Assembly: GCF_041886205.1 (NCBI RefSeq)
Contig: NZ_CP169029.1
Length of the DNA stretch: 64,000 nt
Reading direction: 5' to 3' (one strand)
Origin: Escherichia coli
Lineage (GTDB): Bacteria > Pseudomonadota > Gammaproteobacteria > Enterobacterales > Enterobacteriaceae
A program made the translations under genes and the position numbers. The notes under the pieces are model-generated. The model was not told the DNA's origin. It ran no database searches and was given only the letters and a program-made list of their open reading frames with translations. Each line of letters begins with the position of its first letter. Positions within the stretch are counted from its first letter, which is position 1. Below, in pieces: positions 5,138-62,121 of the stretch.

Positions 5138-5854
5138 TTATATCAGCGAGGTCAGAGATGCCAACCGGGAAATTTCCAGATGCGGCAGTAAACGGCTGTC
5201 CCAGGTTTGCATCAGATCGCCATTTTCCGGTCTGATCCAACAAGCCTGCATTCCGCTGCGAATTGCCCCACCCACGTCAGTGGTGAGATCGTCCCCAACA
5301 TGTAAGATCTCGCCGATCGGCACGTTGAGTTTTTCCGCAGCCAGAAAGTACATATCGCTGAACGGTTTTGAGCGCCCGTGCGGGCCAGCGCGCAGCACAA
5401 ACTCAAAATAATCCCCCAAACCAAACAGTTCCGGCTGGGCGTTACCGTTGGTGATCGCCACCAGCGGCCATTTCTTCGCCAGCTGTTTTAAGGTGTCGTG
5501 AGTTTGCTGCGGGACGTCGATTCGGCTGCGCCATTTGGCAAAGTTAATCATTGCTGCGTGTGCGCCTGCACTGGCTTCTTCGGCACTCAGCCCGGCGTCG
5601 AGCATCGCTTGTTCAATCGATCGAAAACGCCAGCGCGTCACATCGTGATAAATCTCGGGTTCCGCTTCCCGTACCGCCTGGCGCAGGCGTTGCAGATCTT
5701 CATTCCGGAAGCTGCGCAGCGCCGGATGATAATTTTGCACAAAGGTAAGCGCCTCTCGCTCGGTGCGCAAAATCACCGGACGGTTATCGTAAAGGGTATC
5801 ATCCAGGTCAAAGGTGAGCGCCGAGATGCGCCCCAAAGGCCGGTAAAAACGCAT
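5138..5854 (-). CDS. yigB: HAD-family phosphatase YigB
   Basis: ORF 238 aa with HAD motif [11 protein letters not shown] near N-terminus. Confidence 0.9.
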
Positions 5855-6750
5855 TATTTCCCCCGTTTGGCGCGTGGATGCGCCGCATCGTACACCGAGG
5901 CAAGGTGTTGAAAATCAAGATGAGTATAGATTTGCGTGGTGGAGAGGTTGGCATGACCCAGCAGCTCCTGCACACCACGAAGATCGCCGCTCGACTCCAG
6001 CATATGCGTGGCGAACGAGTGACGTAATTTATGCGGATGAACGTGATTATTCAGCCCTTGTTTTATGCCCCATTCGGCAAAGCGTTTCTGCACATTACGC
6101 GCGGAGATACGCTTGCCCAGTTTCGACAGAAAAAGCGCGTCGTCTTCGCTACCAAACAGGTCGCGCAAATCAAGCCAGTGCTCAATCCACGCCACAGCGT
6201 TGCGACCAATCGGCAGGCGGCGCTCTTTGCTGCCTTTCCCCATTACCCACACTTCACCAGACTCCAGGTCGAGGTGTTTGATATCCAGCCCCACCAGCTC
6301 GGAAAGACGCAGACCCGCGCCGTACATCACTTCCAGCATTGCACGGTCGCGTACAGCGAGGGGATCGTTGATATCAATATCCAGCAGCCGATTCATATCG
6401 TCGACGTCGATGTTTTTCGGCAGATGACGCGGCGCTTTCGGTGCCGAAACTCCTTTCGCCGGGTTAGCTTTGAGTTCGTTCTGGCTGACCAGCCAGTCAA
6501 AAAAGCTACGTAGCGCAGAAAGCCGTAACGCCAGACTTGCTGCTCCCAGCCCTTTACGGCGACTGCGTACAGCAAAATTGCGTACCATCGCTGCATCGCA
6601 TTGTTGCCAGCTTTGCAGGCCGTTTTCGCTGGCAAAATTGATGATCGCCTCAAGCTGACGCTGGTAGTTAAGTAGGGTTATCGGGCTAAGCTGACGCTCC
6701 ACGCTCAGATAACGTAGGTAGCGTTCTACATCGGTGTGTAAATCGGTCAT
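5854..6750 (-). CDS. xerC: Tyrosine site-specific recombinase XerC
   Basis: 298 aa; C-terminal catalytic HxLRHSFAT...LGH...Y signature of tyrosine recombinases; synteny dapF-yigA-xerC-yigB. Confidence 0.95.
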
Positions 6751-8703: not shown

Positions 8704-10182
8704 ATGCACTATCGCAATGTGGTTTGTTTGTTGTCTTGTTCGTTGTTTTTATCGTCGGCATGGGGATGTCGGCTTGATGAGCCGGAACATAATATTTACC
8801 AGAAACAGGGAAAAGGCGTGGTGTACCTGCGCCCTTATAAAGAAACAAATCTTTCTCTACCTGACGTGAATTACAAGAGTTTGCGTCGTTTACCTAATTT
8901 ATTAATAGACGCAACAACACAAGATGAATGGAATAAAGAACCACCTCTGACTGATCTAACAACTGACAACCTCTATGAGGGCGCACAAGCCTGGTATCCC
9001 CATTACTCCTGGCATAGCGATGGTCGCTATATCCTCTACGCGGGTGAAGTAGTGCAAAATCCTCACGACGCACCACCCGTCGATATCGCCTCATTCAAGG
9101 CATGGGGAGATTTTGCCGCAGATAAACACAGTCTCTATTTTGAAGGCAAGCGCACCGATAACAATGGCGGGGGAAATCGCTTAGATATCAAAACACTGCA
9201 TCAGGTGGAATTCCGGCCTCCCTGGGATCCTGACTTACTGGGGCTGATATTACGTGACGCTAATTTCTTGTATATCAATGGGCATCGCCTCGCAGATCCC
9301 GATAGTTTCCGTGTGCTGGCACAAAAGTCATGGGATCAACGAGGAAAGTTTTCTACCGCGTTTAATCCCTGTGTGGCTATGCCATTTGGCCCATGGGATA
9401 CCCTGGCTCGTACACGGACCAAAATCCTGATCAACGGCGAACAGCTTGATGCCGACCCGGACACTTTTTCCGTCGTGCGCTGGATGCCCGGCTCACTCTT
9501 GACCTGGCGTGATAAAAACGGGCTGCAGCGTAAAGTCCTCGACAAGGAAAATCTGGCGTGGGATGAGGATTTAACAAAGCACTGTCTGGATTTTTCTCTG
9601 CTGGAAAAGAAAGTGTTCTGGCGTCGGGGGCCTGACTGTAAACAGGAAGAATTACCGGGACTCGATCCGGAACAGTTTCACCCCATCAGTGATGCTGTCG
9701 CACAGTATCAGGACTCGCTTTATACCATCATCGAAACAGAGTCTGGTGACCGCAAGCTGGAGATCGTGAAACTTGATGATCCTAATCTTATTATCAACAA
9801 ACGTTTCAACGCCGGGAAACGCCACGGCTATTTACTTACGCGTGCCGAAGGGTGGCCAAACCATTCCGGTTTACACGTGTTTGAATCTGATGGACCGCTG
9901 ATCTTACTGGATAACCGCTCTCCGGATGAACGCGAAGCCCATCTTAATGACCATCCCTTTTTGCGCAGATGGTATGCCCGCGATAACCGCTACGTTTACA
10001 GCTTTGATGGCGCGCAGCTCTGGCGATACCGCACCGCGGATCCGAAACAAGTTCGCTTAATCTGGAAGGAACAACATTCGGGATATGGCTATGGCGTAAA
10101 TTACAAAACGGGATATCTGGACGGAAAAATTACCGATGACGGCGAATTTATTCCTGCCCCGCGCAATGAGGCGACAAAATGA
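8704..10182 (+). CDS. Exported DKNYY-like repeat protein (paralog A), function unknown; start could be 8674 (GTG) or 8704 (ATG)
   Basis: ORF track 502 aa; N-terminal signal/lipoprotein-like segment (…LFLSSAWGC); repeated blocks such as VDIASFKAWGDFAADKHSLYF, RLADPDSF, DADPDTFSVV, ARDNRYVYSFDG; collinear similarity to the downstream ORF. Confidence 0.7.
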   Translation: MHYRNVVCLLSCSLFLSSAWGCRLDEPEHNIYQKQGKGVVYLRPYKETNLSLPDVNYKSLRRLPNLLIDATTQDEWNKEPPLTDLTTDNLYEGAQAWYPHYSWHSDGRYILYAGEVVQNPHDAPPVDIASFKAWGDFAADKHSLYFEGKRTDNNGGGNRLDIKTLHQVEFRPPWDPDLLGLILRDANFLYINGHRLADPDSFRVLAQKSWDQRGKFSTAFNPCVAMPFGPWDTLARTRTKILINGEQLDADPDTFSVVRWMPGSLLTWRDKNGLQRKVLDKENLAWDEDLTKHCLDFSLLEKKVFWRRGPDCKQEELPGLDPEQFHPISDAVAQYQDSLYTIIETESGDRKLEIVKLDDPNLIINKRFNAGKRHGYLLTRAEGWPNHSGLHVFESDGPLILLDNRSPDEREAHLNDHPFLRRWYARDNRYVYSFDGAQLWRYRTADPKQVRLIWKEQHSGYGYGVNYKTGYLDGKITDDGEFIPAPRNEATK

Positions 10183-11501
10183 ATGGTCAAATAATCACTG
10201 TTGCACTCATCCTGTTGGGGCACATATTTCTGACGCCTGCTGTACAGGCCATAGGGTTCGACTATTACAATGATCACGGTGTTATGTCTTACGGTAAAGG
10301 TTATGGGGAGGATGAGAAAATCATTGCCCAATTTCCGAAGATGAACAGAGCCGATTTGCGCCTTGTGACAAATATATCCGGGGAGCGGGAGTTGGTGGAA
10401 GGCTATATACCCACCGATGAAATAAGCATAAAAAATGAGGAATACCACTGGGTGACAGACGGCCGCGTTATTCTCTGGCGTGGCAAAATCGTTAGCAATC
10501 CACCGGGAACACCCACTGTCGATATTGCCAGCTTTCAGGCTATGGGCCGCTTCGCGGTCGATAAATATAGCCTCTATTTTGACGGACAGCGCACCGAAAG
10601 TAATAGCGGCGCGTCACGTGTTGATCTGGCGACACTAAAAGCTATCGAAGGTAACTCTACCACGCTGGTGGATAGTAAAAATCTCTATTTGTCCGGTCGA
10701 CGTCAGGGGAGCAGCAGTAATGTTACTGTATTAGAAAAAAGATGGTGGGGTATTAATCCACGTCTTATGAGTGTAAACAGAAATTTGTATTCCAATGATC
10801 TGCTTATCCGCAGTGGGCAGAATATTTATTTAAATGGCGTTCACCTTACGGCGAATGCAGACTCATTTGAGATAATTCGCTGGAGACCTCATTCACTGCT
10901 GGTTTTTCGCGACAATAAGGGTCTGCATCGTTATCCCTTTGGTCAATTATCAGGCAAGGCAATACCCGTAGATGATGACGTCTCTTTTGAAGTAGGGGAA
11001 AGTCGCGTTCGCTGGCGTAAACAGCTCACGTCCGACCGTCAGTGGAGCAAGTGGATAGACCTACCAGGTATTGAACCTGAACAATTCCATCTGATTACTG
11101 GCAATATTGCGCAGTATAAAGATCGTCTGTATGTAACAAAATTATCGACTTTTGGTGAAGACCAGCTTGAAATAATTCTGCTGGATTCGCCAGACCTGGT
11201 CATTGATAACTCATTTAATGGCGGCAAACAACATGTTTACTTTATCCGCCAATTACGGTCAAAGAGCGTGCAAATTATTCCAACTAACGGCCCGCTAATT
11301 AAAAACGATCGCTTCGCTTATGACGATCGCAATGTTTATACATGGACCGATACAGAGGTAAGGATTACGCCCTCCCCCTGCCCGGCGAAAACACACGTCA
11401 GAGAAGAGAATGTGCGTGAACTTCACAACAGAGACATTATTATTCCGTTGACGGATGAATCATGCCAGAACGCAGCAGACGAGCAAACTTTGAAGCCCTG
11501 A
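10179..11501 (+). CDS. Exported DKNYY-like repeat protein (paralog B), function unknown
   Basis: ORF track 440 aa; signal peptide MNGQIITVALILLGHIFLTPAVQA; start ATG overlaps upstream stop (ATGA); blocks VDIASFQAMGRFAVDKYSLYF, TANADSFEIIRW, DDRNVYTWTD paralogous to the upstream ORF; AT-rich. Confidence 0.7.
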   Translation: MNGQIITVALILLGHIFLTPAVQAIGFDYYNDHGVMSYGKGYGEDEKIIAQFPKMNRADLRLVTNISGERELVEGYIPTDEISIKNEEYHWVTDGRVILWRGKIVSNPPGTPTVDIASFQAMGRFAVDKYSLYFDGQRTESNSGASRVDLATLKAIEGNSTTLVDSKNLYLSGRRQGSSSNVTVLEKRWWGINPRLMSVNRNLYSNDLLIRSGQNIYLNGVHLTANADSFEIIRWRPHSLLVFRDNKGLHRYPFGQLSGKAIPVDDDVSFEVGESRVRWRKQLTSDRQWSKWIDLPGIEPEQFHLITGNIAQYKDRLYVTKLSTFGEDQLEIILLDSPDLVIDNSFNGGKQHVYFIRQLRSKSVQIIPTNGPLIKNDRFAYDDRNVYTWTDTEVRITPSPCPAKTHVREENVRELHNRDIIIPLTDESCQNAADEQTLKP

Positions 11502-16541: not shown

Positions 16542-17741
16542 ATGACGGAACAAGAAAAAACCTCCGCCGTGGTTGAAGAGACCAGGGAGGCCGTGGACAC
16601 CACGTCACAACCTGTCGCAACAGAAAAAAAGAGTAAGAACAATACCGCATTGATTCTCAGCGCGGTGGCTATCGCTATTGCTCTGGCGGCGGGCGTCGGT
16701 TTGTATGGCTGGGGTAAACAACAGGCCGTCAATCAGACCGCCACCAGCGATGCCCTGGCTAACCAACTGACGGCATTGCAAAAAGCCCAGGAGAACCAAA
16801 AAGCCGAGCTGGAAGGCATTATCAAGCAACAGGCTACGCAGCTTGAACAGGCGAATCGTCAGCAAGAAACGCTGGCAAAACAGTTGTATGAAGTCCAACA
16901 AAAGGTCGCCACCATTTCCGGCAGCGATGCTAAAACCTGGCTGCTGGCTCAGGCCGATTTTCTGGTGAAACTCGCCGGACGGAAGCTGTGGAGCGATCAG
17001 GACGTCACGACCGCTGCAGCGTTGCTGAAAAGTGCAGACGCCAGCCTGGCGGATATGAATGACCCGAGTCTGATTACCATTCGTCGGGCAATTACCGATG
17101 ATATCGCCAGCCTTTCTGCAGTATCGCAGGTGGATTATGACGGCATCATCCTTAAGCTTAATCAGCTTTCAAATCAGGTAGATAACCTGCGTCTGGCCGA
17201 TAATGACAGCGATGGTTCGCCGATGGATTCCGACGGTGAAGAGCTTTCCAGTTCCATCAGCGAATGGCGTATCAATTTGCAAAAAAGCTGGCAGAACTTT
17301 ATGGACAACTTCATTACGATTCGCCGTCGTGATGACACCGCCGTACCGCTGTTAGCGCCAAATCAGGATATCTATCTGCGCGAAAATATTCGCTCTCGCC
17401 TGCTGGTCGCTGCACAAGCTGTACCGCGTCATCAGGAAGAGACTTATCGCCAGGCGCTGGAGAACGTCTCCACCTGGGTACGTGCTTACTACGATACTGA
17501 TGATGCCACCACCAAAGCATTCCTCGACGAGGTGGACCAGTTAAGCCAGCAAAATATCTCGATGGATCTTCCGGAAACCCTGCAAAGCCAGGCGATGCTG
17601 GAAAAACTGATGCAGACTCGCGTGCGTAACCTGCTGGCACAACCGGCAGCGGAGACAACGGAAGCTAAACCTGCACCTGCACCTGCACCTGCACCTGCAC
17701 CGCAAGCTGATACTCCGGCAGCCGCGCCGCAAGGAGAATAA
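16542..17741 (+). CDS. hemX: HemX membrane protein with C-terminal Pro-Ala repeat
   Basis: 399 aa; N-terminal TM segment; coiled-coil Gln-rich region; C-terminal [13 protein letters not shown]. Confidence 0.9.
17670..17699 (+). repeat. Perfect hexanucleotide tandem repeat (CCTGCA)x5 encoding (Pro-Ala)5 inside hemX
   Basis: Read directly: cct gca repeated five times in frame. Confidence 0.9.
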
Positions 17742-17743
17742 CC

Positions 17744-18940
17744 ATGCTAAAAGTGTTATTGCTCTTTGTGTTGCTGATTGCGGGGATCGTGGTTGGCCCG
17801 ATGATTGCCGGTCATCAGGGTTATGTGCTGATCCAGACCGACAACTACAATATCGAAACCAGCGTCACGGGCCTCGCGATTATTTTGATTCTGGCGATGG
17901 TAGTACTGTTTGCCATTGAGTGGCTACTGCGGCGGATCTTCCGCACTGGCGCGCACACCCGTGGGTGGTTTGTCGGGCGTAAGCGTCGCCGTGCACGTAA
18001 GCAGACCGAACAGGCGCTGCTGAAACTGGCGGAAGGCGATTATCAGCAAGTTGAAAAGCTGATGGCGAAAAATGCCGATCACGCGGAACAACCGGTGGTG
18101 AACTATCTACTGGCTGCCGAAGCCGCGCAACAACGTGGTGATGAAGCACGCGCCAACCAACATCTGGAACGCGCAGCGGAGCTGGCCGGCAATGACACCA
18201 TTCCGGTAGAAATCACCCGTGTACGTCTGCAACTGGCCCGTAATGAAAACCATGCTGCACGCCACGGCGTGGATAAGCTGCTGGAAGTTACGCCACGCCA
18301 TCCGGAAGTATTACGTCTGGCAGAACAGGCGTATATCCGCACAGGTGCATGGAGTTCGCTGCTGGATATTATCCCATCAATGGCGAAAGCCCATGTTGGT
18401 GATGAAGAACATCGTGCAATGCTGGAACAACAGGCATGGATTGGCCTGATGGATCAGGCGCGTGCCGATAACGGTAGCGAAGGTTTGCGTAACTGGTGGA
18501 AAAACCAAAGCCGGAAAACGCGTCATCAGGTAGCGTTGCAGGTGGCAATGGCGGAACATCTTATTGAATGTGACGATCATGATACTGCCCAGCAAATTAT
18601 CATCGACGGCCTGAAACGCCAGTATGACGATCGTCTGCTGCTGCCGATTCCGCGTCTGAAAACCAATAACCCGGAACAGCTGGAAAAAGTGCTGCGCCAA
18701 CAGATCAAAAACGTCGGCGATCGCCCGCTGTTGTGGAGCACACTGGGTCAGTCGCTGATGAAGCACGGCGAATGGCAGGAAGCATCGCTCGCCTTCCGTG
18801 CAGCGCTGAAACAACGTCCGGACGCCTACGATTACGCATGGCTTGCCGACGCGCTGGACAGACTGCACAAGCCGGAAGAAGCCGCAGCGATGCGTCGCGA
18901 CGGTTTGATGTTAACGTTGCAGAATAACCCGCCACAGTAG
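17744..18940 (+). CDS. hemY: HemY, TPR-containing inner membrane protein
   Basis: 398 aa; two N-terminal TM segments; follows hemX with a 2-nt gap. Confidence 0.9.
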   Translation: MLKVLLLFVLLIAGIVVGPMIAGHQGYVLIQTDNYNIETSVTGLAIILILAMVVLFAIEWLLRRIFRTGAHTRGWFVGRKRRRARKQTEQALLKLAEGDYQQVEKLMAKNADHAEQPVVNYLLAAEAAQQRGDEARANQHLERAAELAGNDTIPVEITRVRLQLARNENHAARHGVDKLLEVTPRHPEVLRLAEQAYIRTGAWSSLLDIIPSMAKAHVGDEEHRAMLEQQAWIGLMDQARADNGSEGLRNWWKNQSRKTRHQVALQVAMAEHLIECDDHDTAQQIIIDGLKRQYDDRLLLPIPRLKTNNPEQLEKVLRQQIKNVGDRPLLWSTLGQSLMKHGEWQEASLAFRAALKQRPDAYDYAWLADALDRLHKPEEAAAMRRDGLMLTLQNNPPQ

Positions 18941-18950
18941 TTCCTTCTCA

Positions 18951-18980
18951 CCCGGAGGAAAGCACCTCCGGGACCTTTCT
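18951..18980 (+). terminator. Hairpin cccggagg-N6-cctccggg followed by a T-containing tract; likely hemCDXY terminator
   Basis: Perfect 8-bp stem immediately after hemY stop. Confidence 0.5.
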
Positions 18981-18987
18981 GATGCAT

Positions 18988-19194
18988 AAAAAAACGCCTG
19001 CTCTTATTACGGAGCAGGCGTTAAAACAGGTCTGTATGACAACAAGTGGGTGCTTCACTCAACGTTGTGTCCATGGTGTCTGATGAGGCATAAGCGACAT
19101 CTGTCAGTGGACGATAAGCACCGTAAACGGCTCTGCGTCATTCCGGAGTTTATGAGGCACTAAGGCGAACATAAGAGATAGAATGAGCATCTAC
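18988..19194 (-). ncRNA. glmZ: GlmZ small RNA (SraJ/RyiA), about 207 nt, with intrinsic terminator
   Basis: Minus-strand sequence starts GTAGATGCTCATTCCATCTCTTATG... and ends in hairpin AACGCCTGCTC...GAGCAGGCGTT plus U7; known location between hemY and aslA. Confidence 0.8.
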
Positions 19195-19618
19195 TCGTTT
19201 ATTATGCCACAGAGAATCGGGAAATAACATCCCTTAACACTTGTTATGAGATAATTCTGTACCCCTCTTTGCTTCCTGAGTAATAACTTCCTGAGTGAAT
19301 ATTTACCCTGAGCTTGATTCTACACATACTCATTATGAATGATAAAATTCATTCAATTAATAACACATATATTAATTGCTGTTAAAACTAAAAACAGCAT
19401 CAATAATCAACGCGATATAATAAACCTGCCTTACATATCAACTGCGCCAGAGGTAGGATTGAAAATGCTCTCCTGATTTTTAAATTCATTTTTGGGATAA
19501 ATAAATAATTTATTTTTATCACTATTATTTATGCAATCATCCTGTCAGGGAGAGGGATCTCAATTATCAATGCTTAATTACGTCATCATTTTGATGACAT
19601 GAAACCGGAGCATTTTGC

Positions 19619-21274
19619 ATGGAATTTTCGTTTTCACCCAAACTTCTTGTTGTTGCTGTCGCCGCCGCTCTTCCTCTCATGGCCAGCGCAGCTGATACCC
19701 CGTCAACTGCCACCGCACGCAAAGGCTTTGCCGGATACGATCACCCAAACCAGTATCTGGTTAAACCGGCGACCACTATTGCCGACAACATGATGCCAGT
19801 AATGCAGCATCCGGCGCAGGATAAAGAAACCCAGCAGAAGCTGGCAGAACTTGAGAAAAAAACCGGTAAGAAGCCCAACGTAGTGATCTTTCTTCTGGAT
19901 GACGTGGGCTGGATGGACGTCGGCTTTAACGGCGGCGGCGTGGCAGTGGGTAACCCTACACCAGATATCGACGCCGTTGCCAGCCAGGGGCTGATTTTAA
20001 CTTCGGCGTATTCTCAACCAAGCTCTTCCCCAACCCGCGCCACCATTCTCACCGGACAATACTCCATCCACCACGGCATTCTGATGCCGCCAATGTACGG
20101 GCAACCGGGCGGGCTGCATGGGTTAACCACGCTGCCGCAGTTGCTGCACGATCAGGGCTACGTCACTCAGGCCATCGGGAAATGGCATATGGGAGAAAAC
20201 AAAGAGTCGCAGCCGCAGAACGTTGGCTTTGATGATTTCCGTGGCTTTAACTCGGTGTCTGATATGTACACCGAATGGCGCGACGTTCACGTAAACCCGG
20301 AAGTGGCCCTGAGTCCGGACCGTTCTGAATACATCAAGCAATTACCGTTCAGCAAAGATGACGTTCATGCAGTGCGCGGCGGCGAACAACAGGCCATTGC
20401 CGACATTACGCCGAAATATATGGAAGATCTGGATCAACGCTGGATGGACTATGGCGTTAAGTTCCTCGACAAGATGGCGAAGAGCGATAAGCCTTTCTTC
20501 CTCTATTACGGCACTCGCGGCTGTCACTTCGATAACTACCCGAACGCCAAATATGCGGGTAGCTCTCCGGCGCGCACCTCTTACGGCGACTGCATGGTGG
20601 AGATGAACGATGTGTTCGCTAATCTGTATAAAACACTGGAGAAAAACGGTCAGCTTGATAACACGCTGATCGTCTTTACCTCCGATAACGGACCGGAAGC
20701 CGAAGTACCGCCGCACGGACGCACACCGTTCCGTGGTGCGAAAGGTTCGACCTGGGAAGGCGGCGTTCGCGTACCGACTTTCGTTTACTGGAAAGGGATG
20801 ATCCAACCGCGTAAATCTGACGGTATTGTCGATCTGGCAGATCTCTTCCCTACCGCGCTGGATCTGGCAGGGCATCCTGGAGCGAAAGTGGCGAATTTAG
20901 TGCCGAAAACCACCTTTATCGATGGTGTGGACCAGACATCCTTCTTCCTGGGAACAAATGGTCAGTCTAACCGTAAGGCCGAGCACTACTTCCTCAACGG
21001 TAAACTCGCTGCTGTGCGTATGGATGAGTTCAAGTATCACGTCCTGATTCAGCAACCTTACGCTTATACCCAGAGCGGATATCAGGGTGGATTCACCGGC
21101 ACAGTAATGCAAACGGCGGGATCGTCGGTGTTTAACCTGTACACCGATCCGCAGGAAAGCGACTCTATCGGCGTGCGCCATATTCCGATGGGTGTACCGC
21201 TACAGACCGAAATGCACGCATATATGGAGATCCTGAAAAAATATCCACCACGCGCGCAGATTAAATCTGATTAA
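19619..21274 (+). CDS. aslA: Arylsulfatase AslA (Ser-type sulfatase, S-x-P-x-R motif), periplasmic
   Basis: 551 aa; signal peptide; sulfatase signature [13 protein letters not shown] around nt 20027-20045. Confidence 0.9.
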
Positions 21275-39542: not shown

Positions 39543-39872
39543 TTACGCCAGGTTAGCGTCGAGGAACTCTTTCAACTGACCTTTAGACAGTGCACCCACT
39601 TTGGTTGCCGCCACTTCACCGTTTTTGAACAGCAGCAGAGTCGGGATACCACGGATGCCATATTTCGGCGCAGTGCCAGGGTTTTGATCGATGTTCAGTT
39701 TTGCAACGGTCAGTTTGCCCTGATATTCGTCAGCGATTTCATCCAGAATCGGGGCGATCATTTTGCACGGACCGCACCACTCTGCCCAGAAATCGACGAG
39801 GATCGCCCCGTCCGCTTTGAGTACATCCGTGTCAAAACTGTCGTCAGTCAGGTGAATAATTTTATCGCTCAT
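39543..39872 (-). CDS. trxA: Thioredoxin 1
   Basis: [37 protein letters not shown] (WCGPC active site); 109 aa. Confidence 0.97.
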
Positions 39873-40002
39873 ATATAACTCCACAGGAATAAGCCTGGCG
39901 TGTTGGTTTCGTTGTTGGTGTAACATTAACCAACTAAAGGTTGACTTTATTTCACCGGATACGCTTTCGTAAAGCAATAGTAAGCTGATATTCTACCACA
40001 CT

Positions 40003-44954: not shown

Positions 44955-45171
44955 AGGTGTATTGCTCAATCTTCGAACGGGGGGAGGATTGTAGCAGAAT
45001 CGCATTTGAATGTGACCGCGTGTAAGCCGCTAACCGGTTGGCTGCGGATGTTTAAATCAGAGAGAGAAGACCGAAATCGGAGTTCATCGTGAATCCATTA
45101 GACTTAGAAAATATCGGGTCGTAACGTTGTGTTATTACTTTTTCAGAGTTTACTAAGGAGAGGTTTACTCG

Positions 45172-61928: not shown

Positions 61929-62121
61929 TCACAACCCGAAGATGTTTCTTACGATTCATCATCGTGTTGCGAAAATTTGAGAGACTCACGAACAACTTTC
62001 GTTGTTCAGTGTTTCAATTTTCAGCTTGATCCAGATTTTTAAAGAGCAAATATCTCAAACATCACCCGAAGATGAGTTTTGAGATATTAAGGCAGGTGAC
62101 TTTCACTCACAAACCAGCAAG

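Follow-up and report, generated by a model that had tools for sequence, protein, structure and literature searches.

The locus described here is a small-RNA gene and its upstream spacer in a 64,000-nucleotide stretch of an Escherichia coli genome (hereafter the window, whose positions are used throughout). The genes run in the order hemC-hemD-hemX-hemY (plus strand), glmZ (minus strand), aslA (plus strand) and aslB (minus strand), followed by the proM-leuT-hisR-argX tRNAs, so that glmZ and aslA (ATG at 19619) are divergent. K-12 has the identical gene order, and there too the aslA ATG lies 424 bp from the start of glmZ. A scan of the whole window with cmscan against Rfam 15 returned RF00083, GlmZ_SraJ, on the minus strand at 18988-19194, which are exactly the coordinates that the original prediction, made from the letters without database searches, had assigned to GlmZ. 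The match scores 215.9 bits (gathering threshold 60; E = 1.7e-55), covers positions 1-214 of the 214 in the model and is not truncated; the prediction had itself proposed an Rfam search as its check, and the outcome that it named as contrary, no Rfam match, did not occur. The RNA is identical to K-12 GlmZ at 206 of 207 positions and has the same length as the reported primary transcript, 207 nucleotides (PMC4152352). The locus is E. coli glmZ, an already known gene, and holds nothing biologically new. The features are collected in Table 1.

GlmZ has the expected architecture in the window, with two stem-loops, SL1 at the 5' end and SL2 in the centre, and after them a linker that is single-stranded and then a Rho-independent terminator. 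SL2 is the structure reported to bind RapZ (PMC4152352), and both SL2 and the linker have the same sequence as in K-12. The terminator hairpin and U-run that had been predicted were recovered by a terminator scan as an 11-bp stem (7 GC) followed by TTTTTTT, and this is the sole terminator-like site within 18900-19700. Seven Escherichia lineages were aligned, namely the window, K-12, AF14, E. albertii and three divergent genomes; identity among them is 98-99% in GlmZ and 74-87% in its flanks.

The linker was examined for pairing with the glmS leader, which was taken from the closest complete genome, LHM10-1 (glmS ATG at 17676 of the sequence drawn from that genome). With linker nucleotides 146-172 as input, RNAduplex gave 15 base pairs between nucleotides 149-170 and glmS -41..-21, at -19.2 kcal/mol, and 28 of 2000 shuffled glmS leaders paired equally well. 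The published pairing site likewise comprises 15 nucleotides, located where the RNA is single-stranded between SL2 and its terminator, with glmS -41..-19 as target (PMC4152352, PMC6602413); Kim et al. 2012 place the target at -39..-21. The agreement between the computed duplex and the published site supports a GlmZ function. A duplex of the entire GlmZ with the entire glmUS intercistronic region had been tried as well; it ran end to end, scored below shuffles and was dropped in favour of the linker-only duplex. The RNase E/RapZ product is reported to be about 151 nucleotides long, with cleavage at about nucleotides 151-153 (PMC4152352, PMC6602413), which correspond to about 19044-19042 in the window.

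The only base at which this GlmZ departs from that of K-12 is position 15. The 5' end quoted in the original prediction, GTAGATGCTCATTCC, is in fact the K-12 allele, and the window itself reads GTAGATGCTCATTCT. The U15 allele is present in 136 of 5,426 complete E. coli genomes (2.5%), E. coli C and B/BL21 included, and C15 in 5,282; these counts were made with centred 41-mers, for which only exact megablast matches were possible. Both alleles have the same predicted minimum-free-energy fold, in which the C15-G51 pair becomes a U-G wobble at a cost of +1.9 kcal/mol.

Upstream of glmZ the sequence reads GGATGTTATTTCCCGATTCTCTGTGGCATAATAAACGA up to the initiating G. It contains an extended -10 element, TGgCATAAT, at -15..-7 (TG at 19209..19208, CATAAT at 19206..19201), and, 18 bp from the -10, a -35 element ATGTTA at -36..-31 (19230..19225). 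From -60 to +5 the window does not differ from K-12, and the promoter blocks GGATGTTATTTCC and TGGCATAATAA are unchanged in all seven lineages, in contrast to the variable stretch that separates them. These are the features of the Escherichia-type promoter that depends on sigma-70 only (group III of Gopel et al., with an extended -10 and a weak -35). For K-12, Gopel et al. 2011 described a single constitutive sigma-70 promoter of glmZ (PMC3045617), for which sequence upstream of -40 is dispensable and -40..+32 suffices, and in which a point mutation in the -35 or the -10 abolishes activity (PMC3045617). A generic sigma-70 scan missed this promoter because its -35 matches the consensus at only 3 of 6 positions. 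One of the six sites that the scan returned, TTGAGA-16-GATGAT at 19563..19536, is also the 'glmZ promoter' of the Genomic SELEX (systematic evolution of ligands by exponential enrichment) study cited below; it was rejected, its distance from the mapped start being about 340 bp in the upstream direction. E. coli PSS-16 (locus 5346-6111) carries an IS1A insertion some 50 bp upstream of the glmZ +1, with the break at about 19244 and the 5' half of aslA deleted; the insertion leaves the -40..+1 core intact, which fits a distal spacer that is dispensable for glmZ.

The DNA between glmZ and aslA, 19195-19618, had been noted as strongly AT-rich, and this holds: its 424 bp have 32.3% GC, where the window averages 52.3%, no more than 0.13% of the 424-nucleotide segments of the window are equally low, and 19300-19600 falls to 29.2%. 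The tract taaataaataatttatttttatcactattatttatg, quoted in the same connection, is present at 19498-19533. The one other stretch of the window that is equally AT-rich (149-675, minimum 30.2% GC over 301 nucleotides) overlaps a DUF2628-domain gene beside corA. The spacer had further been described as a control region shared by the two genes. This holds for the divergent geometry only; the glmZ promoter takes up about 40 of the 424 bp, and nothing shows the remainder acting on glmZ. The proposal of H-NS as a plausible binder has gained some ground, given the base composition and the mark that the K-12 spacer carries in Genomic SELEX (PMC3946193), in which Shimada et al. 2014 recorded in vitro an RpoD-holoenzyme peak and an 'HNS' mark between aslA and glmZ (PMC3946193). 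Since the glmZ promoter is constitutive in vivo, any silencing by H-NS would have to stay on the aslA side. The confinement of the glmZ promoter to -40..+1 and the K-12 H-NS mark together indicate that the distal spacer most likely belongs to aslA. In our view these distal ~385 bp most likely provide the promoter and leader of aslA and play no part in the transcription of glmZ, and they are probably bound by H-NS, as one in-vitro data set and the base composition make plausible.

The distal spacer is 74-81% identical across Escherichia species and contains conserved blocks at 19396-19412, 19440-19475 and 19555-19618, the final 60 bp before the aslA ATG being highly conserved. These include the aslA Shine-Dalgarno sequence GGAG (19607-19610) and a leader hairpin in which E. 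albertii has one compensatory double change and strain E69 has changes compatible with G-U pairing; in AF14, where a frameshift has made aslA a pseudogene, the hairpin is broken. A perfect 10-nucleotide direct repeat, CTTCCTGAGT, lies at 19272-19281 and 19287-19296, where the spacer is least conserved, the copies being 15 nucleotides apart. As to aslA promoters, those computed by Shimada et al. 2014 are TTAACA-18-TGTAAT for aslA and TTGAGA-17-GATGAT for glmZ (PMC3946193). In the window the predicted K-12 aslA -10, TGTAAT, reads TGTACC (19258-19263), a haplotype found in 8 of 5,426 genomes. The promoter scan and the alignment point to another candidate, in which TTGAAA (19459-19464), invariant in Escherichia together with its flanking block, is followed by TAAATT (19481-19486), 133 bp from the aslA ATG. 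TAAATT occurs only in this haplotype, in at least 14 of 5,426 genomes, and K-12 has CCAATT.

Three reported regulatory links in this neighbourhood were considered and discarded, none having a bearing on the glmZ-aslA spacer. RpoE as a regulator of aslA is indirect in K1; the reported hns effect is on aslB, is indirect and concerns that gene's own promoter; and the sigma-54 link in RegulonDB is likewise to aslB, with the promoter on the other side of the operon pair.

Taken together, we hold with high confidence that this is the known glmZ gene, transcribed from a constitutive sigma-70 promoter and activating GlmS, beside a distal spacer that most likely belongs to aslA and is probably bound by H-NS. 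Transcription would start at 19194 from one constitutive sigma-70 promoter (TGgCATAAT, weak ATGTTA) contained within about 40 bp, which is the sigma-70 remnant of an ancestral promoter in which sigma-54 and sigma-70 elements overlapped; most Enterobacterales retain the sigma-54 promoter and the GlrR sites, and in Escherichia the -24 box and all GlrR sites have been lost. By analogy with K-12, at low glucosamine-6-phosphate full-length GlmZ together with Hfq would pair with the glmS 5' untranslated region, opening the glmS hairpin that masks the ribosome-binding site and so activating GlmS synthesis. When the metabolite is plentiful, RapZ bound to SL2 would recruit RNase E, as it does in K-12, and a cut within the pairing site at about nucleotide 151 would inactivate GlmZ, an inactivation that the decoy small RNA GlmY is expected to oppose, again on the K-12 model. 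With a constitutive promoter, GlmZ activity is therefore set by decay and not by synthesis. An H-NS coat on the distal spacer would silence aslA under laboratory conditions, as we infer from one in-vitro data set and the base composition.

Several points weigh against this picture. The statements on Hfq, RapZ, RNase E, GlmY and the constitutive promoter all derive from experiments in K-12, and the glmS leader in the pairing test is the LHM10-1 sequence and not the window's own. The literature within our reach gives no transcription start for aslA, so that the assignment of the distal spacer to aslA control is presumptive; the supplement text of Kim et al. 2012 has an entry for glmZ and none for aslA. 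The promoters of the SELEX study are computational, and its 'glmZ' promoter, about 340 bp upstream, differs from the experimentally defined one. H-NS binding goes back to a single in-vitro SELEX-chip table, and a search for the high-affinity 10-bp H-NS motif (TCGATAAATT-like) with up to 2 mismatches gave none in 19195-19618.

The alternative that survives best is that the distal spacer is more than H-NS-coated promoter DNA and holds a further functional element; this could be a small RNA or small protein missing from the annotation, or an aslA promoter peculiar to the strain and arising from the rare haplotype. We regard this alternative as unlikely. The three conserved blocks are conserved well above the spacer average, the aslA leader hairpin is semi-conserved with one compensatory change, and the change from CCAATT to TAAATT lies 16 bp after the invariant TTGAAA, alongside that from TGTAAT to TGTACC; there are also open reading frames of 40-45 amino acids at 19339-19476 (plus strand) and 19400-19522 (minus strand). 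These small reading frames, however, are in the poorly conserved middle of the spacer, which includes an indel, and the literature within reach offers no transcript or transcription start there. A permissive search gave no credible match to further Rfam families in 18900-19700, and none in the spacer even at E ≤ 1. The generic sigma-70 scan of the spacer found 6 sites against 2.5 expected, which is what AT-rich DNA yields and is no evidence of function. The more specific idea that the rare haplotype (8-14 of 5,426 genomes) rewires aslA transcription, the predicted K-12 -10 being destroyed and a better one created after the invariant TTGAAA, comes from sequence comparison, and we give it a slim chance. 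If true, expression of the arylsulfatase, which is associated with virulence and normally silent, would be different in this lineage, and the real promoter or operator of aslA would be marked by the invariant block GGTAGGATTGAAAAYGCTCTCCTGAT.

Far less probable is the sigma-54/IHF control that had been suggested for the region. On that view the AT-rich spacer would work like an enhancer, from which GlrR (QseF), helped by IHF bending, activates glmZ through a sigma-54 promoter, in the manner of glmY and of the glmZ genes of Yersinia and Salmonella. This arrangement is the rule in relatives. We surveyed at least 120 GlmZ loci, one genome per species, plus the window and K-12, of which 119 could be scored; a sigma-54 element was called at up to 2 mismatches, with GG and GC both present and its end 11 nucleotides before +1. 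Among the matches listed, 100 of 119 loci have such an element, 95 of these with at least two GlrR sites (nearly all with 2-3), typically near -150, -214 and -246. In the window, by contrast, a search for TGGCAC-N5-TTGCW with up to 3 mismatches found nothing at -24/-12 of glmZ, the best in-register match having 6 of the 11 specified positions wrong and lacking the GG, and no GlrR site (TGTCN10GACA, up to 1 mismatch) occurs in 19195-19618. Elsewhere in the spacer there are two sigma-54 matches, one at 19532-19547 (minus strand, 2 mismatches, TGAC for TGGC) and one at 19258-19273 (plus strand, 3 mismatches), which were discarded for want of the near-invariant GG; over the whole window 290 sigma-54-like matches stand against 331 expected by chance. 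The spacer does contain three one-mismatch matches to the IHF motif WATCAANNNNTTR (19405, 19500 and 19565), but the window as a whole has 52 against 47.3 +/- 6.9 expected, which is chance level, and without a sigma-54 promoter such matches would carry no meaning.

An alignment anchored at +1 sets TGTGGCATAAT in the window against CGTGCAATAAT in the relatives; compared with the relatives' promoter, that of the window keeps the extended -10, has a changed -12 GC and is without the -24 box. For K-12, whose promoter is identical, sigma-54 control has been refuted experimentally, since GlrR did not bind glmZ -424..+32 in electrophoretic mobility shift assays and deletions of rpoN and glrR had no effect (PMC3045617). 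In the lists from genome-wide sigma-54 chromatin immunoprecipitation sequencing (ChIP-seq; PMC4591121) and from RpoN Genomic SELEX (PMC8743547), glmY appears but glmZ, aslA and hemY do not. With neither sigma-54 nor GlrR motifs, and with the K-12 data, the sigma-54/IHF proposal is therefore unsupported for this organism, though it is the rule in relatives.

Among the matches listed in the survey, 19 of 119 loci have no sigma-54 element, and all 19 have TGn-(C/A/G)ATAAT. From Escherichia they comprise the window, K-12, E. albertii and the three divergent genomes, and from other taxa Kluyvera (3), Superficieibacter (2), Citrobacter (3), Pluralibacter (2), Phytobacter, Pseudocitrobacter and one metagenome-assembled genome. 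This distribution suggests that sigma-54 control of glmZ was lost outside Escherichia too, in several independent events, and the 119-locus comparison, within the matches listed, reproduces the published three-class picture of these promoters. The glmZ promoter of the genome named 'Escherichia sp. ESNIH1' is near-identical to that of Pseudescherichia vulneris, and judging from this sequence the genome is probably misnamed.

That the RNA is the paralogue GlmY, the RapZ decoy, and not the base-pairing GlmZ can be dismissed almost entirely: the two belong to a common Rfam clan (CL00011) with a common SL1/SL2 architecture, and weaker overlapping clan matches are suppressed in the Rfam scan, but GlmZ_SraJ is the top clan member at 215.9 bits, ahead of GlmY_tke1, the 15-bp glmS-complementary linker, a site that GlmY is without, is present, and the gene adjoins hemCDXY and not glrK-purL, with 206/207 identity to K-12 glmZ.

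GlmZ is a textbook regulatory RNA. Through it the level of glucosamine-6-phosphate governs the synthesis of GlmS, the enzyme with which the making of cell-envelope precursors begins, and it has a share in the intrinsic resistance of the cell to GlmS inhibitors. The automatic RefSeq annotation of this strain, of LHM10-1 and of the further non-K-12 E. coli genomes that were looked at (record NZ_CP037903.1 among them) has no glmZ feature, and the K-12 annotation (NC_000913.3) gives glmZ 172 nucleotides against the 207 of the primary transcript. A covariance-model pass is needed to see glmZ in genomes annotated in this way.

Table 1. Features of the hemY-glmZ-aslA region, in window coordinates.
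Feature	Position	Strand	Basis or remark
hemY	17744..18940	+	Open reading frame list and annotation; convergent with glmZ (glmZ 3' end at 18988)
Hairpin CCCGGAGG-aaagca-CCTCCGGG	18951-18972		Between hemY and the glmZ terminator; seen in the sequence
glmZ, primary GlmZ small RNA, 207 nucleotides	18988..19194	-	+1 = 19194, last U = 18988; Rfam
Rho-independent terminator	18988..19022	-	Stem 19022..18993, U-run 18992..18988; terminator scan and Rfam structure
Linker with glmS base-pairing site, RNA nucleotides 149-170	19025..19046	-	RNAduplex; between SL2 and terminator
SL2, RNA nucleotides 73-146	19049..19122	-	Rfam consensus structure; also in GlmY
Sole difference from K-12, RNA position 15, C>U	19180	-	Minority allele
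Core sigma-70 promoter, -40..-1	19195..19234	-	Sequence; identity with K-12
Distal AT-rich spacer, presumed aslA promoter/leader, H-NS candidate	19235..19618	.	~30% GC; K-12 SELEX marks
Candidate aslA sigma-70 promoter, TTGAAA-16-TAAATT	19459..19486	+	Promoter scan and alignment
7-bp palindrome/hairpin, GTCATCA-ttt-TGATGAC	19582..19598	+	aslA leader, 21-37 nucleotides upstream of the ATG; sequence and predicted fold
aslA, arylsulfatase, 551 amino acids	19619..21274	+	Open reading frame list; Pfam Sulfatase, 242.3 bits; RefSeq annotation of a near-identical strain

The genomic setting of glmZ is widely shared, since the 801 bases around it were matched in 5,425 of the 5,426 complete E. coli genomes, mostly at ~97.5% identity and in strain LHM10-1 at 100%; LHM10-1 is 99.94% identical to the window across 50 kb. 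Relative to that genome the window has 6 additional bases (ACCTGC) in hemX, at 17669-17674, and the annotated length of hemX among the strains compared ranges from 393 to 405 amino acids, which suggests a length-variable repeat region. Between hemY and glmZ, some E. coli (AF14, 5366-6005 of its locus) and a divergent Escherichia lineage (Escherichia sp. E1V33, 9433-9783) carry an insert of about 640 bp that encodes a 118-amino-acid protein without a Pfam match, with 80% amino acid identity between the AF14 and E1V33 lineages. Its junction corresponds to position 18985, homology to the window restarting precisely at the glmZ terminator, and the stop codon of the inserted reading frame sits on the A-run of that terminator, so the glmZ hairpin may terminate transcription both ways.

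Elsewhere in the window, two adjacent overlapping hypothetical genes of 492 and 440 amino acids (8704-10182 and 10179-11501, plus strand) lie between lptM and cyaY. Against Pfam their products score only weakly, with DKNYY at 21.9 and 26.8 bits, and a PADLOC search for defence systems gave no match. In K-12 we take lptM to be adjacent to cyaY, and on that assumption the pair at 8704-11501 looks like an accessory insertion. Rfam matches above threshold were also obtained on the minus strand for Rev39_5p_UTR (55093-55382, 157 bits) at the place of the ilv operon's ilvL/ilvX leader, for the TrxA 5' UTR thermometer (39843-39942), and for StyR-44 (61936-62044), in the spacer of an rRNA operon. A frameshifted gene for a PemK/MazF-family toxin lies between rep and ppiC (45171-45619, plus strand), according to the annotation of a near-identical strain.

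Among known systems, the closest counterpart is K-12 GlmZ (SraJ/RyiA, RF00083), to which the window is alike in the 207-nucleotide length, start, terminator, glmS pairing site, promoter, neighbours and 424-bp spacer, differing by one RNA base (C15U) and 13 spacer substitutions. The GlmZ loci of groups I and II of Gopel et al. 2011 have a homologous RNA with the same +1 (GTAGATGCTCAT) in the same position beside hemCDXY. They differ in their promoters, which are sigma-54 promoters that overlap with sigma-70 ones in group II (Salmonella, Enterobacter, Citrobacter) and sigma-54 only in group I (Yersinia, Serratia, Proteus). The extended -10 of group II, TGn-NATAAT, lines up with that of the window at every base, whereas the TGGCAC-N5-TTGCA element ending 11 nucleotides before +1 and the two to three GlrR sites at about -150 to -250, which group I and II loci have, are both missing here. 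Their upstream neighbour also differs from the aslA of the window, as the reported variability of the upstream region would have it. GlmY (RF00128) belongs to the same clan, has similar SL1 and SL2, and is bound by RapZ as GlmZ is, but it has no glmS-complementary linker and sits upstream of glrK (qseE); in E. coli it keeps its sigma-54 promoter and gives a strong peak in sigma-54 ChIP, where glmZ has no listed peak. As for the spacer, which is divergent and has ~30% GC, it corresponds to the AT-rich divergent 'type-A spacers' with an HNS mark of Shimada et al. 2014, among which aslA <HNS> glmZ is listed by name; that assignment has an in-vitro SELEX basis, and one end of the spacer is the glmZ promoter, which is constitutively active in vivo.

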